From: Methanobacteriota archaeon
GTDB taxonomy: Archaea; Thermoplasmatota; Thermoplasmata; RBG-16-68-12
Reading direction: 5' to 3'
Assembly: GCA_005878915.1 (NCBI GenBank)
Contig: VBML01000030.1
Location: forward strand, 1 to 39,621
DNA length: 39,621 bases
The translations under genes were made by a program, and so were the position numbers. The notes under the pieces are model-generated. The model saw only the letters and a program-made list of their open reading frames with translations, did not search any database and had not been told where the DNA came from. Shown here piece after piece: positions 2,441 through 30,682 of the stretch (positions are counted from its first letter, which is position 1; the number at the start of each line of letters is the position of its first letter).

Positions 2441-3063
2441 AAGGGTTGCTCGTCGACTTCGATGGGACCCTCGTCGACCTCCCCACGGACTACGAGGGGA
2501 TGAGGCGGGACCTGCGCGCCGCGTTTGGCGGGTATGGACGGGATCGGCCCTTCCGGCCGCTGCTGGACTCGTTGGCGCAGATCCGTGGCGAACTTCTCCG
2601 CGATGGGGTCCCCCCCGCCGAAGTCAGCACACGGATGTACGTCGCAGAGGGGGTCGTGACGAGATATGAGGAGGAAGCGGCGGGTAACGCTCGCGCCCGA
2701 GGCGGCGCGGGTGCGTTTCTCGAGGAGGTCAAGAAGCGGAGCCTGGGTGTGGCGATTGTCACGAACAACGGGCGCAGCGCCGTCGACAAAGCCTTTCAGT
2801 TGCTCCAGCTCCCGCGCCCGGACTTCATCGTCGCCCGCGGGGAAGCCGAGAGGTTCAAGCCGATGCCCGAACCCGCAATCAAAGCACTCGCCTTGCTGCG
2901 CATGGAGCCTCGCGACGTTCTCCTCGTCGGAGACGACGAGCGTGACTACGCAATGGGCCTAGCGGCGGGAATCGAGACCGTGCTCGTCGGGGGAAGGGTG
3001 CCGGGAGCGACCCGCGTTGCGACGTTGCTGGATGTCATCGGTCTCCTGGGGCCCTCGCCATGA
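2419..3063 (+). CDS. HAD-superfamily hydrolase (phosphoglycolate phosphatase-like)
   Basis: Motif I VDFDGTLVD, motif II VTNN, motif III KP, motif IV VGDDERD. Overlaps the upstream stop. Confidence 0.9.
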   Translation: MAGFRSLKGLLVDFDGTLVDLPTDYEGMRRDLRAAFGGYGRDRPFRPLLDSLAQIRGELLRDGVPPAEVSTRMYVAEGVVTRYEEEAAGNARARGGAGAFLEEVKKRSLGVAIVTNNGRSAVDKAFQLLQLPRPDFIVARGEAERFKPMPEPAIKALALLRMEPRDVLLVGDDERDYAMGLAAGIETVLVGGRVPGATRVATLLDVIGLLGPSP

Positions 3064-3812
3064 TTGCCCGGACGAACAAGGGCCTTCGGGAGTACTACGA
3101 CCAGAAGGCCCTGCGGCTGAACGAGCTCGCCGCGACGTACGAGCATCCGAACTGGTACAAGCGCTTCTTCTACCAGAGACGGTTCCGCGTCGTCTTTGAT
3201 TCCCTCGACCCGCGGTCGAATGAACGAATCCTTGATCTCGGTGCGGGTCCGGGATACTACTCGCACCGCATCGCGGAGCGCGGCGCGACTCCCGTGGCCA
3301 CGGACATCGCGAGAAACTACCTCGTTCAGATCCCGAGCTCGGTGACGCACCGCGTGTCGGCGAGCGCGGAATCCCTCCCGTTCCAGCGAGGGGCTTTCGA
3401 CAAGGTCCTCGCGACGGAGATCCTCGAACACACGCTCAACCCTGAGGCGGTGCTCTCCGAGATCGCCCGGGTGTTGAAACCTGGAGGGCGGGCCGTCATC
3501 ACATCCCCCAGCAGCACGTCGTACATGGACCGACTGTACGAGCTGAAGGCCGCGGTTCATCGATACGAATTCACCGAACACCTGCAGGAGTTTCAGCGGG
3601 CGACGTTCGTCGCCCTGCTGAGTCGCTTCTTTCGGGTCAAGCAGATGCGCTTCGCCAACTGCCTCGTCCCCTATCCGCTCGATTTTCTCGTCATGAGAAT
3701 CCCGGGGCGAATCGGGGTCCCCATGGTCACCCGAATCGAAGAGTCCCTCGCAGAGGGCCGCGGGGGCCCGCGCTTCGGCTGGACCATGGTTGGTGTCGTC
3801 GAGGGGGCTTAG
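3060..3812 (+). CDS. Class I SAM-dependent methyltransferase
   Basis: Motifs ILDLGAGPG, AESLPF...FD, EILEH and RVLKPGG. ATGA overlap with the HAD gene. Confidence 0.9.
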   Translation: MIARTNKGLREYYDQKALRLNELAATYEHPNWYKRFFYQRRFRVVFDSLDPRSNERILDLGAGPGYYSHRIAERGATPVATDIARNYLVQIPSSVTHRVSASAESLPFQRGAFDKVLATEILEHTLNPEAVLSEIARVLKPGGRAVITSPSSTSYMDRLYELKAAVHRYEFTEHLQEFQRATFVALLSRFFRVKQMRFANCLVPYPLDFLVMRIPGRIGVPMVTRIEESLAEGRGGPRFGWTMVGVVEGA

Positions 3813-4996
3813 GTCGCGGGTCCGCCAACGGCCGAATACACACTTCGGTACGCCTGCGCGACCTCTCGGATGGAAAACGTGTCTTCTGCGAGCTTCCGCG
3901 ATGCGCGTCCGAGGCTCTCCAGGATCGACCTCTCGCGGAGTTTGGATAGAGCCTGGAAGAAGGTCGCGGGGTCCGATGCGTCCACAATGGGGGACACATC
4001 GACCGGGAGCTCCGCCGATCGGGCCCCGTCCCCGGCGAGCCGGATCACGACGCGGCCACAGGCGAGCGCTTCGAGTGAGGTTCGCGGCGCGCCGAAGCTC
4101 CACGGGTCAAGAAACAGGTGGACAGAACCGTAGAACTCGGGCATCTGCGCGTTCGGCAAGTTCCACGATAATGTGGCCCGCGTGCGCCCGGCCTCGGCAC
4201 CGGCATTGCGAATCTGATCCTCCGTCGCGGCGAGGGCGAGGCGAAACTCCACCCAGTCGGGCGCTTCCGCGGCAAGACGCAGGACGCGGTCGGTGCCCAA
4301 CCTCTCGTAGCGCCCCGCATATCCGACGATCAGGCGGTCGGTCGAGGGCAGGGGGGCGGGGCGGAACCGTTCCGTGTCCACCGGGTTGGGGATCCACCAT
4401 GCTCGGACGCGGAGACCCCGCTCGCGCGCCAAGGCGTCGACGTTCGCTTTCCCGCTCCGTTCCACACACACGACGTTCGTCAGTCGCTCGAGGAGGAGGT
4501 CGTTTCGAATCGAGTCAAACTGCTCCCGAGATCCCCCGAACAGCGAATGGTCCGTGAAGAGGAGGGGATGTCCGTACCCGTCGAAGAAGCGAAGCCAATC
4601 TACCAATGACTGGCTCAAGCGCGACGGATGTCGGGAACGGAAGTTTGCGAAGTACCGGAACGCCGCGAAGCTGTGAAGGTGCACAAGATCCCCTTCCATG
4701 GCCGACGCGACCTCCCGCCGATACCACTCGTCGACCAACCACGAGGCAAGGGCAACGTACTTGCGCTTCCCCGGCGGGACAACCGCCGAGACAACGCGGC
4801 GGACCGCGTTCCCAGCACCAATCGTCCGGAGGGTGACGTTGCTCCCCCATTTCCTATCCCCTCCTCTCGCGTGTGCGGGAGAGATCAACGTGACTTGAAC
4901 ATCCGGCATCGCATCGATGAGCGTGGCGAGCGCAGTTTCAATCCCCCCGAGCCCGGGGGGTGCCACATCCGTCACATGGAGCACGCGCCGAACCAT
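3809..4996 (-). CDS. Glycosyltransferase family 4 (divergent)
   Basis: Motifs PPGLGGIE, WIPNPVDTERF, GYAGR and SLEALACG. 4-bp convergent overlap with the methyltransferase. Confidence 0.8.
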   Translation of the reverse strand: MVRRVLHVTDVAPPGLGGIETALATLIDAMPDVQVTLISPAHARGGDRKWGSNVTLRTIGAGNAVRRVVSAVVPPGKRKYVALASWLVDEWYRREVASAMEGDLVHLHSFAAFRYFANFRSRHPSRLSQSLVDWLRFFDGYGHPLLFTDHSLFGGSREQFDSIRNDLLLERLTNVVCVERSGKANVDALARERGLRVRAWWIPNPVDTERFRPAPLPSTDRLIVGYAGRYERLGTDRVLRLAAEAPDWVEFRLALAATEDQIRNAGAEAGRTRATLSWNLPNAQMPEFYGSVHLFLDPWSFGAPRTSLEALACGRVVIRLAGDGARSAELPVDVSPIVDASDPATFFQALSKLRERSILESLGRASRKLAEDTFSIREVAQAYRSVYSAVGGPAT

Positions 4997-5459: not shown

Positions 5460-6683
5460 TCATGGAAGAGCGGCACTGCCCCCGCCCGTTGCGCTGACCT
5501 TCATCGGCCGGTGACACCTCGCGCACTCCTCTACCGTCGCAGCGCAGGCCACGTGGTAGAACTTCCCGCACTCGCAGCGGTACCCGGGAAGGGCGGGCGT
5601 GAGCGCATCCTCGCAGATGCCGCAGAGGACCCCGCGCTTCCGGGGTGCCGGCGTTTCCGTGACCGTGACCGCTCTCGTACCCGATACCGACGGCGGCTTG
5701 ACGATAAAGCGGAAGGCGAGGCCCCAGAACAGGGCGATCCACGCGAGGAAGATCAGCCATCCCAGGTTCGAGTGAGCAACGGCGAGGTTCTGGACAGCCT
5801 CCTGCTGGGTGTCGCTATACGCCCCGACCAGGACGATCAGCACCATACGGAGGATGTTCGCGACGTAGCTCGTGACGAACCCAAGGGCGAGGAGCGCGAG
5901 GGCCCGCGGCTCGAATCGCTCGTACTCCGTGAGGACGAACGCGACGAACGCGCTCGCGAAGATACCGAAACTGTAGATTCCGGAGCACGCGGTCGTGATC
6001 ACGACCGTGATCGGCAAGCCCGCCTTCGTGACGAACGTGAGCCCGGGAGCAGTCGAGAGGGGGACCGGGTGAACGTTCGCAGACACTCCAAGGACGTTCA
6101 GGACCCAGGAGGTCTGGGGGGCGAGGGCCGTCCAGGAGTAGATGTCCACGCTCCTTTCGAAATCTTGGTAGTACAGGCGCGCGACGAGGAGCGGAACGAC
6201 GAGGACGAGAATCAGGGCTGCCATAAACATCAGGACGAAGTCCCTCTCCCGTGAAAACCGCGGGGGGACGAACGGGTACGCGAACAATGCCGCGGCGAAC
6301 AACAGGACGGACGTGTCCTCCGTGCCCAGGGAGATGCGATCGAACACCAGCTGGTTGTACGCGAGGTCGACGGCGATCCCCGCAATCGCGAACGCAGGGA
6401 ACCAGCGGACGATTTTCCCCCGTAGGGTCACGAAATTCAGGAACCTCGAGGCTAGGGTACGCGCGTCCCTCGGAGCCGGGGCTCCGGCGGACTTTCGGAA
6501 CAAGATGGCGAGGACCGCCAGACCGGCGGCGACAAGCGGAATCCCCAGGAACTCGACGTCTTGACCCTTCGGCGGGTTCAGGAGGAGATCGACTCCGGCG
6601 ACGACGAGCAGAAACGCGAAAAGGAGGGAGACCCGTGCGTGTCGTCTCAGAACGGTCTCGAAACGGGCGAGGTCGAATCGCAC
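5460..6683 (-). CDS. Exosortase/archaeosortase family protein (ArtC-like) with C-terminal C4HC3 zinc finger
   Basis: Multi-pass membrane protein with catalytic triad motifs TTACSG (Cys), ANILRM (Arg) and AHSNLGW (His). Tail CGIC-x12-CEC-x4-H-x2-C-x6-CARC. Confidence 0.88.
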   Translation of the reverse strand: MRFDLARFETVLRRHARVSLLFAFLLVVAGVDLLLNPPKGQDVEFLGIPLVAAGLAVLAILFRKSAGAPAPRDARTLASRFLNFVTLRGKIVRWFPAFAIAGIAVDLAYNQLVFDRISLGTEDTSVLLFAAALFAYPFVPPRFSRERDFVLMFMAALILVLVVPLLVARLYYQDFERSVDIYSWTALAPQTSWVLNVLGVSANVHPVPLSTAPGLTFVTKAGLPITVVITTACSGIYSFGIFASAFVAFVLTEYERFEPRALALLALGFVTSYVANILRMVLIVLVGAYSDTQQEAVQNLAVAHSNLGWLIFLAWIALFWGLAFRFIVKPPSVSGTRAVTVTETPAPRKRGVLCGICEDALTPALPGYRCECGKFYHVACAATVEECARCHRPMKVSATGGGSAALP

Positions 6684-13590: not shown

Positions 13591-14346
13591 ATGGTCGCCG
13601 CTGTCTTCCCGAGGAACGGCGAGGTGGGGTGGATCGAGCGCGCCGCTCTGAGCTTCGGCCTTAGCATCGCGACCGTGCCCCTCGTTGGTCTCCTCTTGGA
13701 CGCCTCCCCCTGGGGGGTCCGCCTTGAATCTGCCGTCGCCGCGCTCTTGGTTGTCACGCTCGGGACTACCGCGGTCGCGTACTGGCGTCGAGTCCGTGTG
13801 CCCCCGGAAGAGCGGCTCGCCCTTTCCCTGGAGTTCGCCCCGCCAAGATGGCGCGGGCTCTCACCCTTCGACAAGGCTCTTACGATTGGCGTCATCGTCT
13901 CGCTCTCCCTCGCCGCCGGTGGCCTCGCGTACGCGCACGGGACGCCGCCCGCCCGAGCCGGCTTCACGGAATTCTACCTCTTGGCCCCCAACGGAGGAAT
14001 CAATCCGGAGGACTATCCGCTGCGGGTCAACGCGAGCGAACCAGCGGCCGTAATCATCGGAATCGCGAACCACGAGAATCGGGAGATGAACTACACGGTC
14101 TCGATCCAACTCGTGAACGTTCAGTACGTGTACAACGGAACGACGAAGAGGAACGACACCGTCGAGCTTGGCAACGCGACCCTAGACGTGCTGCAGGTGA
14201 CCGTGCCAAACGCCGAGCGATGGGAATCCCGGTACGGATTTCGGATTCCGAGTCCCGGGGAGTACCAACTGCGGTTTCTTCTCTTCACATCCCCGCCCCA
14301 GGGGCTCCCCTATCGCTTTGTCCAGCTACGCATCCACGTCGACTAG
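13591..14346 (+). CDS. DUF1616-type archaeal membrane protein (5' end appears lost)
   Basis: Motifs LFLPGY..AAVFP, IERAALSFGLSIA, FTEFYLL, YP and IGIANHE. Family-like sequence continues upstream in frame to about 13468 with no start codon. Confidence 0.85.
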   Translation: MVAAVFPRNGEVGWIERAALSFGLSIATVPLVGLLLDASPWGVRLESAVAALLVVTLGTTAVAYWRRVRVPPEERLALSLEFAPPRWRGLSPFDKALTIGVIVSLSLAAGGLAYAHGTPPARAGFTEFYLLAPNGGINPEDYPLRVNASEPAAVIIGIANHENREMNYTVSIQLVNVQYVYNGTTKRNDTVELGNATLDVLQVTVPNAERWESRYGFRIPSPGEYQLRFLLFTSPPQGLPYRFVQLRIHVD

Positions 14347-14880
14347 ATATCACCTACACCGTGACCGCTGAGGCGGCGATGGGAATCCCGAACCCGACTG
14401 CCGATGCCGCCTCACAATCGGCGAAAGACAAACGCCTGGCGCGGGGGACTGCCCAGAACACTCTACACTTGACGAGCGCCCCAGCTCCCGAAATCATTGT
14501 CGGGCGGCCCCAAGCGAGGCGGTGCACGTCTAACCGTTGGTCGCCAGACGTAAACATAGGTGCCTTTTCTGTCCTCGGACATGGCAGGCCCGGAGGTGAA
14601 CGACAAGCACGCTCTGTGAAACGGGCCGATGGGGCGCCGACGGGCCGGCGACTCTGGGCCCCGACGCCCCGCTTCGGCAATCAAAATCGCCCCCCTGCAG
14701 CCGAATCTCCCCTCGTTGCATTCTGCTCGGCAGTCACCAAGGTTTAGCGCATCGGCGAACGGGATCCGATGCTAGCGGTCACCCGAGCCTAGGCCCGAAG
14801 AACACATTCGGGCACACGAGAGCACAGGCGCGTGAAATACCCTCCAGGGAATCCCCCACTGTGGGTCGCGGGTGATCTAG

Positions 14881-15423
14881 ATGCTGAAAATTGAGAAAGG
14901 GCCGAGCTCAGACATGCCCTTGCCTCCAGAACTGGAGAAGCTCCTACATCGTGAAACCCTCCTCGTCCTCGTCAAGGGGGAGACCGGCACCGGGAAGACG
15001 ACCGCGGCGCTCGAACTCATGGCCCGCCTCCAGTCGGCAGGGGATACCGTCCACCTGTCCACTCGAACGTACCCCGACAAGCTCGCGTACCAACACGCCC
15101 TATTCTCGAAGCTCGCGGGCCGCAAGAACGTCCATTTCTTCTCCAGCCTCGAGTTCGATCCGACGCAGTTCCTCGTCGCTCACAACGTTGTGTCTGGGCT
15201 GTATCGCCTCCTGTCGACGATGGACCGTCCCCTCCTCGTCCTCGATTCGTGGGAGGGGATCGCGGACTACGTGCCCCCCGAGGCCCGGATGAAGGTGGAG
15301 GCGTCCCTAATGGCCGTCCTTGAGGACGCCCGCGCTCGGATGATCCTCGTGAGCGAGCGCCCGGATCACCCTCGAAGGCGGCCGGTTCCGGTACCTCGAA
15401 CCATTCGCCTTCACGCTCCCTGA
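14881..15423 (+). CDS. GvpD-like/KaiC-like P-loop ATPase, N-terminal part (frame-disrupted)
   Basis: LPPEL, Walker A GETGTGKT, LSTR, Walker B LVLDSW and ILVSE. The last about 19 aa look out of frame. Start may be 14914. Confidence 0.75.
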   Translation: MLKIEKGPSSDMPLPPELEKLLHRETLLVLVKGETGTGKTTAALELMARLQSAGDTVHLSTRTYPDKLAYQHALFSKLAGRKNVHFFSSLEFDPTQFLVAHNVVSGLYRLLSTMDRPLLVLDSWEGIADYVPPEARMKVEASLMAVLEDARARMILVSERPDHPRRRPVPVPRTIRLHAP

Positions 15424-15433
15424 GCGCACGTCC

Positions 15434-16273
15434 ATGTTTCGTCCCCTGGCGAATACACCGACCCACATGTCCACGGGAAGCCGGGACATCGACGCCCTTT
15501 TGGGGGGCGGAGTCCCTCGGGGTTCCACGGTCCTCTTCGAGATCCGCGGGGACGTCCCGTTCGACGCGCAGGTGTACGTACCCGTCACGGCCCTCTTGAA
15601 CTTCCTTGCGACGAACAATGCTGTAATGGCGTTCCTCTACAGCGACTACGACCCGACGCGGGCACGTCTTTTCGCCACGCAGTTCATGCCTGAGGATGTG
15701 TACGATGCGAATATGCGAGTGTTCACGACGGACCGAGTCGAGGACCCCGTCGCCATCAAGTTCTCCCTGAACCCGAAGGAGGACTTCGACAAGTGGCTGG
15801 ACACATACAGCGCGTACAAGAAGGAAGGAAAGACGATCTGGATGTTGATGGCCCTGGATACCGTCGAGAACTTCTACGGGCAGGGAGTCATGAACTTCCT
15901 TGCGACCGTCGCAGCCCGAGCCGCCGTGAACAAGGACATCCAGTCGATCGTCGCGCGGCCGAATCTGGAGCTCACTCAGAAGGTCGCGAACATCTCCCAG
16001 ATTCACCTCGTCCTGAGCCAGCGGTGGGGCACCCTGATCCTTTACGGAGTGAAGCCGAGGACAGGATTCTACGCGCTCCAGTTCACGTTCGGCCACGGGT
16101 ACCCGGAGTTCGAGCTCATCCCGCTCGATGATATCTCTTTGAGCAAGGAGGTCCTTGCGGAGAAGGAACGACCCCCGCTTGTGTCGTTCGCGGACCGACG
16201 CCATGAGGCCCGCGAAGACTTCTTCGAGGCCGTGATGACCTCCCTGATTCGATCAAGAAAAGGGGGCACGTAA
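15434..16273 (+). CDS. GvpD-like protein, C-terminal degenerate KaiC-like domain
   Basis: STGSRDIDALLGGGVPRGSTVLFE with no intact Walker A; HLVL...LILYGVKPRT. The frame is open upstream of the ATG (ITLEGGRFRYLEP), so it is probably one gene with the preceding ORF. Confidence 0.72.
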   Translation: MFRPLANTPTHMSTGSRDIDALLGGGVPRGSTVLFEIRGDVPFDAQVYVPVTALLNFLATNNAVMAFLYSDYDPTRARLFATQFMPEDVYDANMRVFTTDRVEDPVAIKFSLNPKEDFDKWLDTYSAYKKEGKTIWMLMALDTVENFYGQGVMNFLATVAARAAVNKDIQSIVARPNLELTQKVANISQIHLVLSQRWGTLILYGVKPRTGFYALQFTFGHGYPEFELIPLDDISLSKEVLAEKERPPLVSFADRRHEAREDFFEAVMTSLIRSRKGGT

Positions 16274-17010
16274 TGGAGGACAAGGTAATGACCAAGGTAA
16301 TCGCGGACTCAGACGGGCGTACGTCAACAGGGATTCCGGGGCTTGACGGCATGCTCGAGGGGGGCTTTCCGAACGGGAGCTTGATCACCCTCGCGGGTCG
16401 CCCGGGGACGGGGAAGACGATTTTCGGATCCCAATTCCTGTATTACGGCGCGGTGGAGGAGAAGCAGCCCGGGATGTACGTCTCCATGCTCGAGGGCCGC
16501 AGGGCGTACCTCCGGAACACGGCCCGGCTCGGCCTCGACATTCCGCCGCTCGAAAAGAAGGGACTCTTCCGGTTCCTCGAGATGCCGACGTTGACCGCGG
16601 AAGGGCTACCCACGATCTGGGAAGAAATCGTCCGGAACATCGAGGAGATGGACATCGTCCGCCTCGTGATCGACTCGTACACCGCGATGGCCCAGGCCTT
16701 CGAGACCCCGGGCGACATCCGGGTCTTCACCCACATGCTCCTCGGAAAAATCGTCGGGTCGGCGGGGTGCACGACGTTGATGATCACGGAAACTCCGCCA
16801 CAGGATGGCCACCCGGGCCTGGGGATGCACGAGTTCATCGCGGACGGCGTCCTCCATTTCCACCTCGTCCCCGTAGCAGGGGACGCCCGAGTCCGATACA
16901 TCGAGATCACGAAGATGCGAGGCACGAGCCACCAGATGGGACCGATTCCGATCGAGATCGGGCGAAACGGGATCACGGTCCGATCTCCGCACATTCCCGG
17001 TCGGAGATAG
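16273..17010 (+). CDS. Single-domain KaiC/RAD55-like ATPase
   Basis: STGIPGLDGMLEGG, Walker A GRPGTGKT, Walker B RLVIDS, EFIADGV and KMRG. TAATG coupling to the upstream gene. Confidence 0.92.
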   Translation: MEDKVMTKVIADSDGRTSTGIPGLDGMLEGGFPNGSLITLAGRPGTGKTIFGSQFLYYGAVEEKQPGMYVSMLEGRRAYLRNTARLGLDIPPLEKKGLFRFLEMPTLTAEGLPTIWEEIVRNIEEMDIVRLVIDSYTAMAQAFETPGDIRVFTHMLLGKIVGSAGCTTLMITETPPQDGHPGLGMHEFIADGVLHFHLVPVAGDARVRYIEITKMRGTSHQMGPIPIEIGRNGITVRSPHIPGRR

Positions 17011-17033
17011 GGACGTGAGCGGGCGGAAGCGAG

Positions 17034-17282
17034 ATGCCACACCTTGCCGCTAAGCTGGGCCTGAAGAGTGACGAGAGCTTCCAGAAGGCGTACTGGAAGT
17101 ACTTCGAGGAGTTCTTCGGAAAGCAGAATTCGGCGGTCGTGAAGGCGATGCTTCTCGCGAAGAACGACAAGGCGGACACTGGGGCCGAAGAGATTGATCG
17201 AGTGTGCTTCGGCTTGCGGCAATCCATGGGGTGGCTCGCGGAAGCCATTGAACGGAAGGCGCTCGACGTCGCTCATCACTAG
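17034..17282 (+). CDS. Small helical hypothetical protein (resembles DUF3227/NitrOD5-type proteins)
   Basis: 82 aa, co-oriented 23 bp after the KaiC-like gene. Pattern FFG...AVV...L ... LR..MG..AEAIERKAL; the family match is from memory only. Confidence 0.65.
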   Translation: MPHLAAKLGLKSDESFQKAYWKYFEEFFGKQNSAVVKAMLLAKNDKADTGAEEIDRVCFGLRQSMGWLAEAIERKALDVAHH

Positions 17283-17722
17283 CGGGGACCGGTGAGGGAC
17301 CACTTCGCCCCCGAGCCGTGTTTGAGGATCACCGTCCACTTGCCATCCTTGGCGTGCTCCTCATATTCGAAGGCCCGCCCGTACCGGGAGGTGAGGCGGG
17401 GGAACCCGACGACCATGGACTGTAGGCTGACCTCCTTGAACCAGAACGTCATGAATTCCGGGAGTAGGTTCTTCCCGACCCACCGGCCGAGTTCCGCGGC
17501 CTCTTCGTTCGTAAGGTGATCCATCAACCGCTCGACGAGGGAGGAGGGCAGGGCCACGAGGCCGAACTTGTCCGCGTAAATGTCCCACTCCACGAGCCTT
17601 CGGATCGCTTTGTTCACGAGGAGATTGACGCTGACCCCTTCTCGGTCCCCGAACTTCCGGAGGAATTCGTCGACATCCCGCTCGAGGCGAATCGTCCGGG
17701 TCACGCTGTTGCTCGGTGGCAC
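17279..17722 (-). CDS. Ribbon-helix-helix-containing protein, paralog 2 (about 33 aa shorter)
   Basis: N-terminal SVTRTIRLERDVDEFL...GVSVNLLVNKAIRR (RHH pattern). Colinear with the adjacent paralog until KWS. Confidence 0.75.
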   Translation of the reverse strand: MPPSNSVTRTIRLERDVDEFLRKFGDREGVSVNLLVNKAIRRLVEWDIYADKFGLVALPSSLVERLMDHLTNEEAAELGRWVGKNLLPEFMTFWFKEVSLQSMVVGFPRLTSRYGRAFEYEEHAKDGKWTVILKHGSGAKWSLTGPR

Positions 17723-17758
17723 GGGTGCGTCCGATATTGGACGTACTGCGGATGCTAC

Positions 17759-18304
17759 TTAACCCTTTCTCCCGAACAGCCGGAAGCGGACGACAACCTG
17801 GTTATCCGACTTCTCGACCCGCACGTCGCGCTGCAGTAGGTCCCGGAACGCCGTCCGGATCGTTGTCTCGTAGAACGTCGACCACCGTGGGCCGCCGCCA
17901 TGCTTGAGGATGATCACCCGCCGGTCGTCTTCGACGAGCTCCTCGTACGCGAACGCCCTCCCGTACTTCGACAGCAGCCTCGGGAACCCCTCGAGCAGCG
18001 TCTCCGGGGTGACCTCGGTGAACCAGAACGTGATGTATTCCTTCAGGAGGTTCTTCCCCGCCCACTCCCCAAGGGCCGCCGCCTCCTCGTCCGTGAGACA
18101 GTCCATCAGCTTGACAAGGATCACGGCGGGGAGGGTGATGAACCCAAACTTCTCGCCGTAGGCATCCCACTCGACGAACTTCCGGAGGGCGCGGTTGACA
18201 AGCGTGTTCACGCTCGTGTCCCCTTGGTCCGCGAGTAGGCGCAGTCGTTCGTCGGCGTCCTTCTCGATTCGGACGGACCGGGTCACACTCCCTCTGCCGG
18301 GCAT
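17759..18304 (-). CDS. Ribbon-helix-helix-containing protein, paralog 1
   Basis: 181 aa from ATG 18304 (SVTRSVRIEKDADERL...SVNTLVNRALRK). Alignment with paralog 2 fixes the start; the ORF-track extension to 18904 overlaps the GT2 gene. Confidence 0.8.
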   Translation of the reverse strand: MPGRGSVTRSVRIEKDADERLRLLADQGDTSVNTLVNRALRKFVEWDAYGEKFGFITLPAVILVKLMDCLTDEEAAALGEWAGKNLLKEYITFWFTEVTPETLLEGFPRLLSKYGRAFAYEELVEDDRRVIILKHGGGPRWSTFYETTIRTAFRDLLQRDVRVEKSDNQVVVRFRLFGRKG

Positions 18305-18342
18305 CTTGCTGTCCCCTAGCTCCTGTAGGTCAAGTCCTTTTG

Positions 18343-18359
18343 TGTTCTTAGATGTTCTT
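18343..18359. promoter_or_regulatory. Direct repeat TGTTCTT x2, candidate operator
   Basis: TGTTCTT at 18343-18349 and 18353-18359 (10-bp period), about 40 nt upstream of the RHH gene start. Confidence 0.4.
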
Positions 18360-18590
18360 TTGCAACCGATGTGACGCGTTGGGAGACAGACGCTCGGGTC
18401 CCTTTCTTGATGAAACATACCCCTCTTGAGTCTCCCGGCCCAGACAATCCCCTGTATGGAACCGTGGTACCCGGAAGAGACGGGCACGCCCGGCCTCGGA
18501 GGGCTCCCGCCGACTGATCGATCGCCAGCGCAACATCCGCCGGCGGGACCGGGGGCGGGGAAGGCCGGGCGAGCTAGTCCCAGGCGGGAC

Positions 18591-19436
18591 ATGAGCTTCG
18601 AGAATTCCCCTCCGTCGGATAACGACTTCGAACCGCATTTTCGCTCAGGCCCTCGCTGCGAATCGAAGGGCAGCATCGAGGTCGTGCTCCCCGCCCTCAA
18701 TGAAGAGAAGGGCGTGGGAAACGTGATAGACCGGATCCCGCAGGACAAACTGGTCCAATCCGGATTCCAAGTCCGTGTCTGGGTGGTCGATGGGAAGTCC
18801 AAGGATGCGACCCTTGAGGTCGCTCGGAACCGGGGGGCGAACACGTTCGTGCAGACGGGCGACGGCAAGGGGAACGGTGTTCGCCAGCTCCTGGACCATA
18901 TCATCGCCGATGGCCGGGGTCCGGACCAAGGATCCCGGGTTTTCGTGATGCTCGACGCCGACGGCAGCTATCCCCCGGAAGCGATTCCAAAATTCGTCGA
19001 GGCCCTCAAGGCTGGCTCGGACGTGGTCGTAGGATCCCGTTTCCTCGGGGAGGTCCAGGAGGGGGCAATCACTCCCCTCAACCGCCTCGGGAACCGAATC
19101 CTGAGCCGCCTCGCAGGCTTCCTGTTCGGCACCCCTGTTAGCGATGTCTGCACGGGGATGTGGGCATTCCGGGAGGACTCCCTCCGCCGCCTGGGTTTGG
19201 CCGCGGACGGCTTTGACCTCGAGGCGGACCTGTTCGCATCCTCCTGCGAGAGCGGCGCGCGTCTGCGGGAGCTGCCGATCGACTACCGTCGCCGCATCGG
19301 GGACCCGAAGCTTGTCCCGCTCCGCACCGGTCTCCTCATCGCGTGGCGGCTCCTCCTCAAGCGGTTGAACCGTCGCGAAGGTGTCGTCCCACGGATCGAC
19401 CGACGGAAGGCGTCCTTGGTGGAGGACGCGACGTGA
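18591..19436 (+). CDS. Glycosyltransferase family 2 (Dol-P-mannose synthase/AglJ-like)
   Basis: Motifs VLPALNEE, VVDGKSKDAT, GKG, MLDADGSYP, VGSRF, DVCTG and ELPIDYRRR.G..KL. ATG 18591 preferred. Confidence 0.9.
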   Translation: MSFENSPPSDNDFEPHFRSGPRCESKGSIEVVLPALNEEKGVGNVIDRIPQDKLVQSGFQVRVWVVDGKSKDATLEVARNRGANTFVQTGDGKGNGVRQLLDHIIADGRGPDQGSRVFVMLDADGSYPPEAIPKFVEALKAGSDVVVGSRFLGEVQEGAITPLNRLGNRILSRLAGFLFGTPVSDVCTGMWAFREDSLRRLGLAADGFDLEADLFASSCESGARLRELPIDYRRRIGDPKLVPLRTGLLIAWRLLLKRLNRREGVVPRIDRRKASLVEDAT

Positions 19437-20620
19437 AGGTGTGCATCCTGACACCGGAATTCCTTCCCGCCTGGGGCGGGATCGGTACGTACACGTACAA
19501 CCTCGCTCGCGGGCTCAGGGATCGCGCGGAGGTCCATGTCCTGACCGGTGCCGCGAACCCGGAGTACGCCGAGCTTGACGGGGTCCGCGTCCACCACGCC
19601 CTCCCGGGGGACGGACTGCGGGCGCCAACGTCCCCATTCCGATTTCAGGCCGCAGTCTTCCGCCGCCTTCCGCGTCTCGCGAAGACCTACGGATTCGACA
19701 TCGTCCACGCGAACCACGCGTACATGTCGGACCTGCTGTCCCGGCTCCGAGGGAATCGGACCCCAACGGTTGTCACCGTCCACACGACCCTCGACACGCA
19801 GGTCGGGGGGACCCTGCTCGCGGGCCCTTCTGTACCGCGCCAGGGTCTCGAGGGGAGCCTCGCCCGGTGGCGGTTCGCTCTCCAGGCCGTCGAGCGAAGG
19901 TACCTCCGGGGGACGCAGGCGATGATCTTCGTGTCCCGTTGGGTAAGGGACCGCACCATTCGTCGCTACCGCGTCACCCCGCGACTGAACACGGTCGTAC
20001 CCAACGCCGTCGACACGGAACGCCTCGCCCCTGCGGGCCCGAGTGGCGGGCTCGACTCCCGGGCTCTGGGGGACCGGCCGACCGTCGTCTTCGCCGGGAG
20101 GCTCCTCGCCCTGAAGGGCATCGATACGCTCTTCCGCGCGATGGCCCGAATCGACTCCCGGGTCGTTCTCGCCCTCGCAGGCCCCGGGGACCAAGCGCCG
20201 TGGAAGGCATTGGCGAGGGGCCTGGGACTCGAGGAACACCGCTACAAGTTCCTCGGGCGGGTCCCGTACGCCGAGATGCCTGACCTCTATCGCAGTGCGG
20301 ATGCGGTCGTCTTGCCGAGCTTCACGGAGAGCTGTCCCCTCGTCGCGCTCGAAGCGATGGCATGCGGAACCCCGATCATCGCGGCAGACTCAGGCGGGGT
20401 CCCAGAGGTCGTGCGGGACGGGGAGACCGGCTGGCTGTTCCCCCCGGGCGACGCGAACGCGCTCGCGTCTCGAATCGAAGCTGTCCTGTCGGACCCATCG
20501 GGAGCGGAGCGCGTGACGGCACAGGCCCGCGCATGGGTGGAAGCGAACGCCAGAATCGATCGGATGGCCGACTCGACGTTCCGGTTCTATGAGCGGGTCC
20601 TGGAGGGGGAAGCCTCGTGA
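19433..20620 (+). CDS. Glycosyltransferase family 4
   Basis: Motifs PEFLPAWGGIG, VPNAVD, FAGRL...KG and PSFTESCPLVALEAMACG (EX7E). GTGA overlap with GT2. Confidence 0.92.
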   Translation: MKVCILTPEFLPAWGGIGTYTYNLARGLRDRAEVHVLTGAANPEYAELDGVRVHHALPGDGLRAPTSPFRFQAAVFRRLPRLAKTYGFDIVHANHAYMSDLLSRLRGNRTPTVVTVHTTLDTQVGGTLLAGPSVPRQGLEGSLARWRFALQAVERRYLRGTQAMIFVSRWVRDRTIRRYRVTPRLNTVVPNAVDTERLAPAGPSGGLDSRALGDRPTVVFAGRLLALKGIDTLFRAMARIDSRVVLALAGPGDQAPWKALARGLGLEEHRYKFLGRVPYAEMPDLYRSADAVVLPSFTESCPLVALEAMACGTPIIAADSGGVPEVVRDGETGWLFPPGDANALASRIEAVLSDPSGAERVTAQARAWVEANARIDRMADSTFRFYERVLEGEAS

Positions 20621-21939
20621 ACATAGCCATCGTGAACCCTCCTCGGTTCGACGGGGTTTCCGTCGTGAGGGAGGAGCGATGTGAGGTAACGGAACGATAC
20701 TCCGTCCTCGAGCCGTATAGCCTCCTCCAGCTCGCCGCCCTCCTTCAGGCGGGCGGCCACCGCGTGCGTCTCCTCGATGCCAACGGCGCGAACGCGTCGT
20801 ACGGGCATGTCGAGTCGTGGCTGCGCCGCACTGCTTACGACGCGCTGATCTTCCGGTTCACCCCAACCACGTTCGACCACGATCTTCGCCTCGCCACGCT
20901 TTCCAAGAAGCTCCGGCCGGACGCCCGTACAATCGGAATCTGCTGGACCCTCCGCACGATGCCCGCGGACGTGCTCCGGGAAGCGCCCGACCTCGACATC
21001 TATCTCCGCCACGAATACGAGAACGTTGGAACCCGCCTCCTCAACGCTCTCGAGAACGGCGCCCCGCTCGATGGCGTGCCCGGGATCGCCTTCCGCGAGA
21101 ACGGCGGATTCCACGTCACGAACGACGCGCGCGCGATCGCGGATTATGACGCAATGCCCATCCCGGCATACGAGCTGCTCCCCTCCCTCGATCCGTATTT
21201 CATTTCCGCCCACGCCTGTCAGCCGTTCACGATCATGTACGCCAGCAAGGGATGCCCGTTCGCGTGCTCCTTCTGCACCGTAGCTCGCACGACCTGGAAG
21301 TTTCGGTCTGCGGCGCACGTGCTTGAGGGACTCGACGTCCGCTGGTACTGCAACACGCGCGTCCACCTCGTGGACCCCGACCTGCTCCGGGAAATGCGGT
21401 CCGCCGGATGCAGCGGCATCTCGTACGGGGTCGAGTCCGGAAACCAGGGAATTCTCGACACCGTCAGCAAACAAGCGACGGTCGCACAGGCGGAGCACGC
21501 GCTCCGATGGGCGAAGGAGGCGGGGATCAAGACGTACGCCGCATTCATTCTCGGGTTGCCCGGGGAGACATGGGAGAGCGCGATGGACACTATCGAGTTC
21601 GCGATGCGGACGTTGCCGAACGGCGCGCAGTTCAACGTCCTGGCCCCCTATCCGGGCACGGAGCTGTACGAAAACCTCCGTCAACGGGGGGTCCTGCCCG
21701 AGGTGGACTGGAGGGCGCTCTACCAGGACAGCGCCGTCGTCGGAACCGACGGCCTCTCCAGGGCAGAGCTCAATCGGCTCCGTCGACTCGCTTACACGAA
21801 GCTCTACTTCAACCCGCGTTGGTGGTGGCAGAACCTCCGCTTCGCCCTGTCGAGCCGCGACGACTTCCAGCTAGCATCGCGGTATGGCCTTCGGATCCTG
21901 TCGAACTATTTCGTCCACGGAATGCGCGGCAGTCACTAG
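20617..21939 (+). CDS. B12-binding domain radical SAM protein (internal segment appears missing)
   Basis: N-terminal IVNPP...REERC, VPGIAFR, SKGCPFACSFC (CxxxCxxC), YGVESG, FILGLPGET and PYPGTELY. Confidence 0.9.
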   Translation: MNIAIVNPPRFDGVSVVREERCEVTERYSVLEPYSLLQLAALLQAGGHRVRLLDANGANASYGHVESWLRRTAYDALIFRFTPTTFDHDLRLATLSKKLRPDARTIGICWTLRTMPADVLREAPDLDIYLRHEYENVGTRLLNALENGAPLDGVPGIAFRENGGFHVTNDARAIADYDAMPIPAYELLPSLDPYFISAHACQPFTIMYASKGCPFACSFCTVARTTWKFRSAAHVLEGLDVRWYCNTRVHLVDPDLLREMRSAGCSGISYGVESGNQGILDTVSKQATVAQAEHALRWAKEAGIKTYAAFILGLPGETWESAMDTIEFAMRTLPNGAQFNVLAPYPGTELYENLRQRGVLPEVDWRALYQDSAVVGTDGLSRAELNRLRRLAYTKLYFNPRWWWQNLRFALSSRDDFQLASRYGLRILSNYFVHGMRGSH

Positions 21940-28488: not shown

Positions 28489-29448
28489 TCACCGCCCTCG
28501 GAGGAGAAGCGGCCAACGATCGTCCACCGCCTCCCGCATCCGGCGAGCCATCTCGGAAGGATTGAACGCGGACCACTTGCCGTCCACAAGGGTCCGATCG
28601 CCCAGCGCGGAAAGAGTGTGGATGCCCGAGCCACTGGGACCGTGTCCGAAGGGACCGACCTTGGCGACGGCTTCCTCGCAAAAGTCCGTGGGGGTGAGTC
28701 GCACGACACGGTTGATCGTGACCCCCCCTCCGTATCCATTTGTGCAATCCTGTGAGGGCCGATACAGCTCCCCGCGGAAGCGGAACGGAGTGCCCGCGGG
28801 ACGGGCCGAGGCCGCGTCCGTCTTCACGGGGTTCAAAGGGTGCGCCGTCCACGGGCCGAAGAGGTCCGGGGCATACCAGACCCGGAGCTTCGAAATGGGG
28901 CCGTCGTTCTGATCCGTGCAGAAGAGCCAGAACCGGCCGTCGTGTTCGAAGACCGTGCTGTCGAGCCCCGCGACACCTGGAACGAGGACGGCCGCCTTCG
29001 TCCATCGAAGAGGGAACTCGTCCGCCCGGAAGATAGCGACCTCCTTGCCCTTCGCGGTCTCCGGAATGCAAAACAGGGAGTCGTCCCGCTCGATGAGGTA
29101 GGGGTATGCGGTGTGGAACGGGAATTCGATCGCGGGCCGGGGTTGGGAGAACCGCCCGTCCGCGTTCTCGTGGACGGACGAAATGACCCCCTTGTCCGAA
29201 CGAAAGTCGTACTCCTCGAAGAGAATTTCCGTCTCACCAGCCTTCGTGACCCCGAAGGGATCGGCATAGAACTTCCCAGGACCCGGAGGAGGCATCCAGT
29301 GGACCATCGGCGCGACCGTGGGGTCGAGGAACGCATGAATCGGAACGTCGGCGATCCCGATATTCCAGTGGTCGTGGCGGAACGCTAGGTCGTATTCGGT
29401 TTCGAGAAATCCTCGAACGCGTCGAATCGTGATTGGACCGCGGACCAT
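28489..29448 (-). CDS. GINT1_N-like five-bladed beta-propeller (putative glycoside hydrolase)
   Basis: Motifs WNIG, FYADPF, LFEEYD, HTAYPYL, IPET, DST, PWTAHPLNPV, RPAG and RPSQDC...YG. Start uncertain (ATG 29448). Confidence 0.75.
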   Translation of the reverse strand: MVRGPITIRRVRGFLETEYDLAFRHDHWNIGIADVPIHAFLDPTVAPMVHWMPPPGPGKFYADPFGVTKAGETEILFEEYDFRSDKGVISSVHENADGRFSQPRPAIEFPFHTAYPYLIERDDSLFCIPETAKGKEVAIFRADEFPLRWTKAAVLVPGVAGLDSTVFEHDGRFWLFCTDQNDGPISKLRVWYAPDLFGPWTAHPLNPVKTDAASARPAGTPFRFRGELYRPSQDCTNGYGGGVTINRVVRLTPTDFCEEAVAKVGPFGHGPSGSGIHTLSALGDRTLVDGKWSAFNPSEMARRMREAVDDRWPLLLRGR

Positions 29449-29587
29449 GCGCGCGATTGAGGAAGCGAGAGGAAGGATATCCTGCGTACGACGGCGAACG
29501 ACGGGGTCGAGGTCAACCTGAACACACCCGATGGCGGGTGTGTCGCACGCAACCTTGAGGGGCTCGTCCCATGAACGTCGGCCCCAC

Positions 29588-30682
29588 ATGGGAGGATTCA
29601 AGCCCGAGGAGACAGCGGACCCGATGGGCGACACCCGCATCGCTATCCTGACACAGCATGCACCTCCGGAGCAGGCCGGCGGAGTCGAGGTCTTCAACGA
29701 GTCGCTCCGTCGATCCTTTGGCCACGTCGAAATCTTTTCTGACGAGCACAGGGAGGCGGGCGATGGGGGGCTGCGGCGCGTCCTAGGGCTCGAGGGGCCG
29801 GCCGAGGCCGTCCGGGCCGCGCGCGCCCTCCTGCGGAGACACGAGGAGGACCCCTTCGACGTGATTCTGAGCAACGGGCTCTACGGCTGGCCGCTGACGC
29901 TGGCGCGGCCCGGTGTCCCGCTCGTCCAGGTGTATCACTGCACGATGGCGGGGTTCGCCCGCCACACGCTGACCCTCCGGAGCGAGCGACTCGCGCAGGG
30001 CCATGTGATGGCCCTCTTCGATCGCCTCGCGGGGATCGGGAAGCACGTCGTCGTCGTCAGCCAGCCCGTCCTCCGCGAAGTCGAGTCTTTCTATGGCCTG
30101 AAGGCCCGACTCATTCTCCACGCCGTGGACACGAACCTGTTCCGGCCGATGGACCAAGCCTCGGCTCGGGAGAAGCTAGGACTGCCGCAGGACACCCGCA
30201 TCGGCTTGTTCGTTGGGCGTCCAGACCACACGAAGGGATTCGACATCCTGCTTCGGGTCGCGCAGGGGATGCCTCGGGTCCTCTTTCTCACGGCGGGGGT
30301 TCGGCACCCGAGCCTGCTTGAGAACCTGCTGTCCCTCGGCCAGATTCCGCATGACGAGCTCCCGATGTGGTACGCCGCCGCGGACTTCTTCTTCCTCCCT
30401 TCGCGGTACGAGGGGTTTGGTCTTTCTACGCTCGAAGCCCTCTCGTTCGACCTCCCAATCGTCGTGAGCGACGCCGCGTGGCCGTTCCCAGAGGATCCGT
30501 CGCGCTGCGGGGTCGTTGTCCAGGGCACCCGAGAGCACGACTATGCAAAAGCGATCCAACGCGTCGTCGGGTCGAGGTCGCGGTTCACGCCCCGGAGCTT
30601 CGTGCTCCCACGCTTCGACTTTGCCATGTTCCGCGAGACGTGGCGGGGGTACATCGCATCGATCCTCGACACAGGGGGCTGA
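29588..30682 (+). CDS. Glycosyltransferase family 4, tandem paralog A
   Basis: Motifs GGVEVFN, FVGRPDHTKG and PSRYEGFGLSTLEAL. Start is 29588 or 29624. Confidence 0.9.
   Translation: MGGFKPEETADPMGDTRIAILTQHAPPEQAGGVEVFNESLRRSFGHVEIFSDEHREAGDGGLRRVLGLEGPAEAVRAARALLRRHEEDPFDVILSNGLYGWPLTLARPGVPLVQVYHCTMAGFARHTLTLRSERLAQGHVMALFDRLAGIGKHVVVVSQPVLREVESFYGLKARLILHAVDTNLFRPMDQASAREKLGLPQDTRIGLFVGRPDHTKGFDILLRVAQGMPRVLFLTAGVRHPSLLENLLSLGQIPHDELPMWYAAADFFFLPSRYEGFGLSTLEALSFDLPIVVSDAAWPFPEDPSRCGVVVQGTREHDYAKAIQRVVGSRSRFTPRSFVLPRFDFAMFRETWRGYIASILDTGG

Follow-up and report, generated by a model that had tools for sequence, protein, structure and literature searches.

GvpD is, to our knowledge, the sole archaeal regulator of the KaiC family with a known target, acting by removal of a transcription factor that is encoded beside it, and we know of studies on GvpD only from the gas-vesicle clusters of a few haloarchaea. 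Here, we analyzed a 39,621-nucleotide (nt) stretch of DNA (the window; contig VBML01000030.1, positions 1 to 39,621 of the forward strand, assembly GCA_005878915.1). It stems from a metagenome-assembled genome (MAG) of the class Thermoplasmata that comprises 2.12 Mb and is 83% complete. At positions 14881–18304, the window carries a cassette for a GvpD-like protein, a single-domain KaiC-like ATPase, a small protein of 82 residues (p82), and two putative regulators (RHH_a and RHH_b) that combine a ribbon–helix–helix (RHH) fold with a sensor-type domain. The cassette is probably a self-contained regulatory switch of soil Thermoplasmata.

According to the available part of PMC4390858, GvpD interacts with the activator GvpE and lowers the amount of GvpE, for which the Walker motif and an Arg-rich region of GvpD are required. 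A KaiC-like ATPase with a small α-helical second component has been proposed (PMC4858521, available part), and the term “iKaiC” is mentioned in the accessible section of PMC5847659. A set composed of GvpD-type protein, KaiC-like ATPase, p82, and twin RHH-sensor proteins was not described in the literature searched; Makarova, Galperin and Koonin 2017, which lay outside this search, may list it.

Organization of the cassette

Six open reading frames (ORFs) lie within 14881–18304, four on the plus and two on the minus strand. The cassette and its flanking elements comprise the following features.

14798–14841, plus strand: candidate operator and core promoter of the ATPase operon, a GRRCACA triple followed by a TATA-like GAAATAC
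14881–15423, plus strand: 5′ part of the GvpD-like gene, P-loop domain with the Walker A motif GETGTGKT, ORF of 180 residues (Pfam GvpD_P-loop)
15365–15366, no strand: junction at which 134 nt are missing (alignment with relatives and independent contigs)
15367–16273, plus strand: 3′ part of the GvpD-like gene, linker and second domain with a degenerate P-loop (Pfam GvpD_bR2)
16273–17010, plus strand: single-domain KaiC-like ATPase, 245 residues (Pfam KaiC PF06745)
17034–17282, plus strand: p82, predicted three-helix protein of 82 residues, intact in the window (conserved clusters, AlphaFold2 model)
17279–17722, minus strand: RHH_a, predicted RHH and sensor-domain regulator of 147 residues, C terminus truncated (comparison with relatives, tree)
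17292–17295, no strand: junction at which about 122 nt are missing (alignment with relatives and independent contigs)
17759–18304, minus strand: RHH_b, intact predicted regulator of 181 residues (AlphaFold2 model, fold matches)
18333–18359, minus strand: promoter element of the RHH operon, AAGAACAtctAAGAACAcaaAAGGACT, near-invariant in twin-RHH loci

The start of RHH_b was taken as the methionine at 18304, inside a longer open frame. As a check on coding, substitutions relative to one relative were counted by codon position, and third positions were in excess for all genes.

The named relatives of the window are soil MAGs deposited as “Thermoplasmata archaeon” and “Methanobacteriota archaeon.” A scan of the named genomes gave 65 loci. 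All 22 close loci (L072–L093) contain RHH, p82, and KaiC genes, with parts of the GvpD-like gene wherever the contig reaches, and all 12 wider loci show the order GvpD-like, KaiC-like, and p82, followed by one or two convergent RHH genes (at L031, the match to p82 covers only residues 47–78).

Within the same order, 15 of 41 genomes, including that of the window, have RHH matches. A tandem pair is found in nine genomes (again including the window's own) and a single copy in four, and several genomes carry unlinked paralogues. At the position of RHH_b, before the GT2 glycosyltransferase gene, the single-RHH cassettes have an ORF for a 172-residue winged-helix protein (L088:6362-6880, minus strand; likewise in L086 and L092), called ArsR-type by inspection of the sequence alone.

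True orthologues of the GvpD-like protein (≥65% identity) were sought across 251 genomes of the class. Outside the window's own genome, they occur in six genomes of the same family; further orthologues were found in one genome of a second family of the order and in two genomes of a family of another order. One of the latter two, a MAG of Candidatus Sysuiplasmataceae (G088), encodes RHH, RHH, GvpD-like, KaiC-like, p82, and p82′ on one strand and in a different neighborhood, next to a TFB gene and genes for two large unnamed proteins. The two proteins after this cassette measure 892 and 831 residues and have no Pfam match (L070:5073-7751 and 2411-4906, minus strand).

The persistence of linkage through this rearrangement is the strongest indication of a joint function of the five products. 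Presence and absence also agree: among the 11 genomes of the family covered by both searches, six have both the RHH gene and the GvpD-like orthologue and five have neither, the latter being 83–98% complete; since these genomes are kin, the co-occurrence does not amount to a statistical test. The conserved-neighborhood check proposed in the first-pass annotation thus came out positive, with the five-gene set kept in 22 of 22 loci and still linked, though rearranged, in Sysuiplasmataceae. The functional tie between ATPases and RHH proteins that it had postulated finds support in the same linkage and in the matched occurrence.

The GvpD-like protein

Relatives encode the GvpD-like protein in a single ORF of about 508 residues. 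The window has two ORFs in different frames instead, at 14881–15423 (180 residues) and 15434–16273 (279 residues). The first matches GvpD_P-loop (E = 7.4e-8, 32.9 bits, cut-off 24) and the second GvpD_bR2 (E = 1.9e-8, 34.5 bits, cut-off 27.9). In tblastn searches, residues 1–162 of the first ORF match relatives, and the 3′ part is 82–92% identical to them. The annotation of a two-domain GvpD-like protein is therefore right in that both GvpD domains are encoded, and in relatives by a single ORF, and wrong for the window as it stands, in which they fall on two out-of-frame ORFs.

The intact orthologue of a relative (L025:6246-7772) passes both GvpD-specific models, GvpD_P-loop PF07088 with 45.5 bits (cut-off 24) and GvpD_bR2 PF20440 with 36.4 bits (cut-off 27.9). 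On its first domain, the KaiC model PF06745 scores slightly above the GvpD model (50.6 bits). We aligned this orthologue pairwise with GvpD of Halobacterium (pNRC200), which it matches end to end with 25% identity over 480 residues (pairwise E = 5e-35). The alignment places GETGMGKT of the orthologue opposite GAPGTGKT of GvpD (Walker A), and the Arg-rich segment DRRVRELEVRKLRG of the orthologue, a stretch absent from the window, opposite RGRTRRQLRLEKLRG of GvpD (the KLRG segment). When the orthologue was compared with a plasmid collection, 17 of the 18 matching records were annotated as haloarchaeal gvpD or as GvpD-domain proteins, and one had no feature under the match. The first domain of the GvpD-like protein retains Walker A and shows “STR” at the site of the KaiC catalytic glutamates, the same as in authentic GvpD. 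The second domain is degenerate and has no P-loop.

Kinship to GvpD does not imply gas vesicles here. The GvpL/GvpF family (PF06386) was not found in any of eight cassette-bearing genomes (83–99% complete), and the control pNRC200 gave six matches. A search of the window's own genome for GvpA (PF00741) gave no match and was uninformative, as its control was likewise silent. The same genome encodes a second GvpD-like two-domain protein of 542 residues (G000 contig C155:13040-14593; L071:5035-6663, minus strand), whose gene adjoins a PolX-type gene. This paralogue outscores the cassette protein with both GvpD_bR2 (58.9 bits) and GvpD_P-loop (56.3 bits), and paralogues of its type (∼500–540 residues) account for the match in most of the 188 of 251 genomes of the class that have any match (a tally that includes the unpublished genome G130). 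A paralogue that is nearly universal indicates that GvpD-like proteins are common in the class and not tied to gas vesicles. The proposed independence from gas vesicles is in line with both results, as the GvpD-like gene does not track gvp clusters. Among the 30 ORFs of the window that were scanned, no gvp, kaiA/B, or archaellum families were detected, in agreement with the first-pass annotation.

The KaiC-like ATPase and p82

The gene at 16273–17010, annotated from the start as a KaiC-like ATPase, indeed encodes one (KaiC PF06745, E = 1.4e-51, 175.5 bits, cut-off 26.6). Its start overlaps the stop of the preceding GvpD-like gene by 1 nt. The motifs GRPGTGKT (Walker A) and “LVIDS” (Walker B) are conserved. 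The best relatives of solved structure are CI domains of KaiC (E = 8e-50), followed by the single-domain Pyrococcus proteins PH0186 and PH0284. Every NCBIfam equivalog cut-off is missed (KaiC, 113.6 bits versus 408).

Alignment with KaiC puts “HEFIAD” of the ATPase opposite “EEFVAD” of CI and opposite the phosphosite stretch “ISTITD” of CII, so that Glu-Phe occupies the position of Ser-Thr, the CII phosphosites that we take to be Ser-431 and Thr-432. The remark that HEFIAD replaces the phosphosites was thus correct. KaiB (PF07689) was not found in the window's genome, which is 83% complete, and a Synechococcus control was positive; KaiA was not searched. The single domain, the Glu-Phe at the phosphosite, and the failure to find KaiB in the genome all agree with the non-circadian function that had been suggested.

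The 82-residue helical protein of the first-pass annotation likewise proved to be genuine. p82 has 48 homologous clusters, all from Thermoplasmata or “Methanobacteriota” MAGs where named, and its 80-residue core contains 20 invariant columns; many members add a basic tail. The AlphaFold2 model predicts three helices with a predicted local distance difference test (pLDDT) score of 85.7. Searches of p82 against Pfam, NCBIfam, and PADLOC returned no match, the Atlas no usable match, and Foldseek no fold match (best E = 1.6). Its distribution suggests that p82 is lineage-specific.

A similarity to Af1502, RbcX, or death folds was considered and discarded, because VIA Z values of 5.1 (Af1502) and 3.3–4.8 (RbcX, death-fold) are noise for a small helical protein. 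An apparent fused form was also discarded: the sole longer protein is an out-of-frame read-through of KaiC joined to p82. The suggested assignment to DUF3227 found no support in the Pfam scans, which gave no such match. Next to the KaiC genes of Bathyarchaeia, no p82-like ORF was found.

We read p82 as a putative adaptor or partner of the ATPases, akin to KaiB or to small helical partners. This reading follows from its fixed position after the KaiC-like gene and from the small helical partners of KaiC-like ATPases described in the available part of PMC4858521.

The RHH-sensor regulators

RHH_a and RHH_b are 56% identical to each other and are divergent from the operon of GT2, GT4, radical-SAM, and GT4 genes, as annotated in the first pass. 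Sequence profiles barely recognize them as RHH proteins. RHH_1 stays below its cut-off of 20.5 bits (15.5 bits for RHH_b, 15.5–18.7 bits overall), and neither the 147-residue nor the 82-residue ORF has a Pfam match. Across 27 representatives of the family, marginal hits to RHH_1, HicB, or Arc are confined to the N terminus, and a few of them reach the cut-off. A profile search of the Protein Data Bank returned AvtR, NikA, and CopG (E = 0.05–0.4) and no match for the C-terminal domain.

The AlphaFold2 model of RHH_b (pLDDT 80.7; the N-terminal strand has low confidence in the monomer) is more informative. Residues 4–57 superpose on CopA_SO, PutA-RHH, omega, TraM, and ParD/TacA (Z = 4.8–5.8, root mean square deviation 1.9–3.8). 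Residues ∼55–181 match sensor-type folds at Z = 6.3–9.8 over 113–131 residues, namely TRAPP Bet3-type proteins (9.8, 126 residues aligned), VirS/BcsD (8.7), CdpR (8.1), DmpR (7.9), H-NOX (7.3–6.7), PoxR (6.5), and the V4R protein MJ_1460 (6.3), values that lie near the level that the tool calls “middling.” Foldseek returned the same set of folds for the C-terminal domain, with BcsD as the best match (E = 2.6e-4). The sensor fold was assigned because this list of matches is coherent, not because of single Z values. Judged by these models, the family is best described as RHH proteins with a V4R/Bet3/H-NOX-like sensor domain, that is, as one-component regulators. The annotation of twin RHH proteins is consequently upheld for the N-terminal fold by superposition of the model, and it had missed the sensor-type C-terminal domain.

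Pfam V4R (PF02830) and HNOB (PF07700) gave no match to the RHH proteins at E ≤ 0.1 and none at E ≤ 0.01 in the 27 representatives. In the family alignment, no cysteine is found among the invariant or nearly invariant columns; a cluster of cysteines serves as a criterion for V4R in the accessible section of PMC5847659. PF27313 (AF_0136_C, Pfam 38.1) may cover a related C-terminal domain; it is an unconfirmed lead, from a neighboring Atlas cluster (score 0.92) in which 62% of the members carry it. A description of an RHH-V4R family was not found in the literature searched.

A family profile built from 24 members was run against 1.84 billion proteins and matched 1,943 representative clusters at E ≤ 0.001, 1,090 of them at E ≤ 1e-10. 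The best 150 matches are mostly near the full length of ∼175 residues. More distant members were found in Nitrososphaerales, Bathyarchaeia, Marsarchaeota, and other Thermoplasmata. In a Bathyarchaeia locus, a related RHH gene adjoins three KaiC-like genes, an independent parallel to the cassette. One Nitrososphaerota member adjoins a phage-tail-sheath-like gene (L112:7666-9015).

In the tree, all cassette RHH proteins fall into one clade of 23 rows (100/100), together with solo paralogues and the two sequences from Bathyarchaeia. The a-type and the b-type are each monophyletic (100/99), and the deeper branching is not resolved.

Candidate promoter elements and possible expression

The ATPase operon is preceded by three GRRCACA units, with starts at 14800, 14810, and 14820 and a period of 10 nt, and then by the TATA-like GAAATAC at 14834–14840. 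This is the only triple tandem of GRRCACA in the window, and its position is kept in the nine twin-RHH loci inspected. The element upstream of RHH_b, AAGAACAtctAAGAACAcaaAAGGACT, is nearly invariant in twin-RHH loci and is also kept in the MAG G006, in which no GT2 gene is adjacent. Judged against the single-RHH loci, it is probably in the main a TFB recognition element (BRE) with TATA box, and it may overlap a putative operator. Across 14 loci, Sysuiplasmataceae included, the two promoter regions contain the pentamer GAACA 28 times versus 9.2 times expected; as the motif was selected only after it had been noticed, and in loci that are related to each other, this enrichment is a lead and not a result.

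Two metatranscriptome libraries, both from one study, contain contigs that are identical in sequence to parts of the genes for the GvpD-like protein, the KaiC-like ATPase, p82, and RHH_b. One of them spans 16908–17292, covering the 3′ end of the KaiC-like gene and all of p82, and continues beyond. The operon is possibly expressed; carry-over of DNA into the RNA libraries is also possible. Cover by these libraries is absent, for example, at 17295–17722, from which we drew no conclusion.

A conserved non-coding block is located at 14590–14700 upstream of the ATPase operon. The search for RNA elements gave one sub-threshold Rfam row (pRNA, 22 bits versus 34), no tRNA, and nothing for this block, and the predicted folding of 14596–14700 does not surpass that of shuffled sequence (z = 0.24 and −0.75).

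A proposed regulatory switch

Based on the homology to GvpD and on the gene context, we propose with a probability of roughly 0.45 that the cassette works in the manner of GvpD on its own RHH-sensor factors, with the KaiC-like ATPase and p82 in the complex and the factors controlling the promoters of the cassette. The RHH factors would bind the phased GRRCACA repeats at these promoters and would respond to a small hydrophobic ligand. The GvpD-like/KaiC-like pair, its second member translationally coupled to the first, would together with p82 as a putative adaptor bind the RHH factors in a nucleotide-dependent manner. Factors thus bound would be inactivated or removed, as GvpE is by GvpD. In this way, a chemical signal and the ATP state would be linked in a feedback switch. 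Among genes that might be controlled outside the cassette, the glycan operon is merely one candidate.

Several observations weigh against this proposal. “STR” replaces the catalytic glutamates of the GvpD-like protein, which makes its ATPase activity uncertain. p82 and RHH_b show no likeness to GvpE of pNRC200, with only short alignments at E = 7.6 and 0.018, respectively. The GRRCACA/GAACA motif is absent from four single-RHH loci, the promoter element of the RHH operon may be simply BRE/TATA, and contigs from the RNA libraries also lie over 14601–14899, upstream of the proposed promoter, which is unexplained. The RHH family is large, with its 1,943 representative clusters, and the RHH proteins of the module form no exclusive, supported clade apart from solo paralogues. 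Among 33 distant family loci, only one has a KaiC-type neighbor within two genes; the others adjoin genes of small-molecule metabolism (cyclase, SRPBCC/AHSA1, SnoaL, CDGSH, UbiD, BBE-oxidase, M1-peptidase, and similar). RHH-sensor factors are therefore able to work without the ATPase.

The main rival explanation, possible albeit rather unlikely in our view, is a one-way wiring. Here, the RHH-sensor proteins would not be substrates of the ATPases and would serve as ordinary ligand-responsive regulators of the ATPase operon, and perhaps of the glycan operon, with the complex of ATPases and p82 acting on some other target. Such a wiring suits a C-terminal fold that is shared with the sensors of the one-component regulators DmpR, PoxR, VirS, CdpR, and H-NOX, the phased repeats upstream of the ATPase operon, the 32 of 33 distant loci without a KaiC-type neighbor, and the near-universal GvpD-like paralogue of the class, which has no linked RHH gene. 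It accounts less well for the finding that in each of three genomic contexts the cassette has retained RHH genes of its own, and the sole member of the GvpD family with a known mechanism acts on a transcription factor encoded next to it (PMC4390858, available part).

Two stretches absent from this assembly

DNA alignment revealed that 134 nt between 15365 and 15366 are absent from the window and present in all five aligned relatives. The first GvpD-like ORF is homologous to relatives only up to 15365, its tail beyond being out of frame; the second ORF is listed from 15434, and its frame is already open from 15353. The gap hence explains the frame shift and also why the first domain lacks its end and with it the Arg-rich DRRVRELEVRKLRG segment. 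A second alignment gap, of about 122 nt, at 17292–17295 takes in the spacer together with ∼34 codons at the 3′ end of RHH_a, which has 147 residues in the window versus 177–178 in relatives. The overlapping stops of p82 and RHH_a that were annotated at first are thus present in the window and result from the missing ∼122 nt, relatives having a spacer at this place.

Contigs of two metatranscriptome runs and of two soil-metagenome runs, the latter from separate studies, were aligned to 14300–18700. The DNA contigs differ from the window at 0–3 positions each. None of the metagenome or metatranscriptome contigs bridges the junction 15365|15366 of the window, and no metagenome contig bridges the one at 17292–17295. 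One contig continues for 84 letters past 15365, and another carries 33 additional letters ahead of 15366. Judged by eye, these loose ends are, in the parts shown, like the sequence of the relatives. At 17292/17295, two letters of the window correspond to 124 letters in one independent contig, and two further contigs, one of them from an RNA library, continue past this point. Both lesions are specific to this assembly or strain. As near-identical contigs carry the missing sequence, the natural cassette is intact in near-identical organisms.

We consider it improbable that the cassette is a decaying pseudogene cluster in the organism of the window and that both missing stretches are real deletions. 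Two independent lesions inside 2 kb, one frameshifting and one truncating, would fit such decay, as would the patchy distribution of the cassette within the family, which implies that loss is common, and a GvpD-like gene that matches in two pieces in another genome as well (G029). Against it stand the contigs of two other studies, which contain the missing sequence at 0–3 differences in the flanks, and the rest of the coding sequence, which is free of further stops and shows the substitution pattern of genes under selection.

Two further observations concern the same genes. In the G029 locus (G029:C8; L028:11297-11925; L084:9339-9967), residues 45–72 of the second part of the GvpD-like protein are missing between the two pieces. 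At 18122–18268, the 5′ part of RHH_b, the summed contig depth is 52–62 versus about 5 elsewhere in both DNA runs; this part is apparently common, at ≥95% identity, to contigs of many other organisms or to paralogues.

The neighboring glycan operon and the rest of the window

An action on surface-glycan genes, as the first-pass annotation envisaged, is suggested by adjacency only, and this breaks down in three genomes (G007, G006, and G088). The GT2 gene lies next to and divergent from RHH_b in 21 of 22 loci, which are close kin. The MAG G007 (98% complete) has an orthologous GT2-GT4-radical-SAM-GT4 operon and no cassette, with both searches finding no RHH and no GvpD-like orthologue. Conversely, the cassette of G006 (98% complete) is flanked by genes for DUF2085, EMC6-arch, a CCA-adding enzyme, MarC, and COX1; within 9 kb of it, nothing matches the 30 ORFs of the window except a copper ATPase. 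Neither the G006 nor the G088 cassette has glycosyltransferase genes nearby.

It is slightly less probable still than pseudogene decay that the cassette serves to control the neighboring operon for protein or surface glycosylation. The divergent arrangement of RHH_b and GT2, an intergenic region with conserved elements on both sides, and BcsD, a cellulose-synthase subunit, as the best Foldseek match of the RHH C-terminal domain would all be consistent with this role. It is at odds with the cassette-free operon of G007, the unrelated genes around the cassette of G006, and the TFB gene and two large unnamed proteins beside that of G088; the kinship of the 21 adjacent loci lessens the weight of their agreement, and in single-RHH loci the ArsR-type gene is interposed between RHH and GT2.

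Finally, we regard it as very unlikely that the genes are mere neighbors by descent without a shared function or that the cassette is an anti-virus defense island, because the linkage persists after rearrangement into another order, presence and absence are matched in the 11 genomes, and PADLOC returned only P-loop noise (E = 0.0014–0.0036), even if most loci come from one family and the cassette is patchy in distribution.

The remainder of the window is archaeal, with genes for DUF1616, PAC2, TRASH-domain and AsnC-type regulators, and a copper P-type ATPase. Its long run of GT2/GT4 glycosyltransferases is accompanied by a B12-radical-SAM enzyme, methyltransferases, a flippase-type protein, and an exosortase-like protein. 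This glycosylation island includes, at 5460–6683, 20617–21939, and 28489–29874, genes for a membrane protein resembling exosortase/EpsH, for a B12-binding radical-SAM enzyme that is surrounded by GT4 genes, and for a protein with a GINT1_N-like domain. In the DUF1616 ORF (13591–14346), the match to the profile begins only at profile position 39; the ORF may in truth start farther upstream, or the part for the N terminus may have been lost.

Comparison with known systems

With the cassette, a GvpD homologue of full length is available from another phylum-level lineage, in genomes without gas vesicles, and again encoded together with transcription factors. As just five small soluble proteins are involved, along with two short candidate operators, the targets of archaeal KaiC-like ATPases become testable, and a large unannotated archaeal family of about 1,900 representative clusters now has a fold and a name, as RHH proteins with a V4R/Bet3/H-NOX-like sensor domain. 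The cassette is known from uncultured organisms only. It is a doubtful extension that GvpD-type regulation might be a general archaeal principle, in which a complex of GvpD-like and KaiC-like ATPases with a small helical adaptor would strip or destroy ligand-sensing factors (here, RHH proteins with a V4R-like domain) at the expense of ATP and so provide a resettable switch or timer, and in which the near-universal paralogue of Thermoplasmata would act likewise on other factors.

The KaiC-like ATPase shares with KaiC of the KaiABC system the RecA/KaiC fold, Walker A, the Walker B aspartate, and one of the two catalytic glutamate positions. It differs by its single domain of 245 residues, compared with the tandem CI and CII domains of KaiC, and by Glu-Phe in the place of the CII residues that we assume to be Ser-431 and Thr-432; as to the partners, KaiB was not found in the genome and KaiA was not searched.

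The C-terminal domain of the RHH proteins has the fold of the V4R/H-NOX/Bet3 sensors (DmpR, PoxR, MopR, VirS, CdpR, and H-NOX). In contrast to these, the cassette proteins lack a Pfam sequence match and an invariant cysteine cluster, and their DNA-binding module is RHH and not σ54 AAA+/HTH or AraC. The N-terminal 45–53 residues superpose on omega repressor, PutA-RHH, CopA_SO, and the ParD/TacA antitoxins, and the candidate operators consist of short repeats with a 10-nt period, as in phased-repeat RHH repressors of the omega, CopG, and MetJ/Arc type, whereas the sequence matches to RHH_1, HicB, and Arc are at or below the Pfam cut-offs.

With GvpD, the cassette orthologue has in common the two-domain architecture, which passes both GvpD-specific Pfam models, and a gene placed beside transcription-factor genes. 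The identity is just 25%, however, and the factors are RHH-sensor proteins and not the leucine-zipper-like GvpE. The cassette also adds a single-domain KaiC-like ATPase and p82, and it occurs in genomes without gas-vesicle genes (GvpF/L, 8 of 8), in a class in which a second GvpD-like paralogue is near-universal. With the archaeal KaiC-like “signal transduction hub” cassettes (Makarova, Galperin and Koonin 2017; Makarova et al. 2016), it shares an active KaiC-like ATPase, an inactivated KaiC-like domain, a small α-helical partner, and adjoining regulators.

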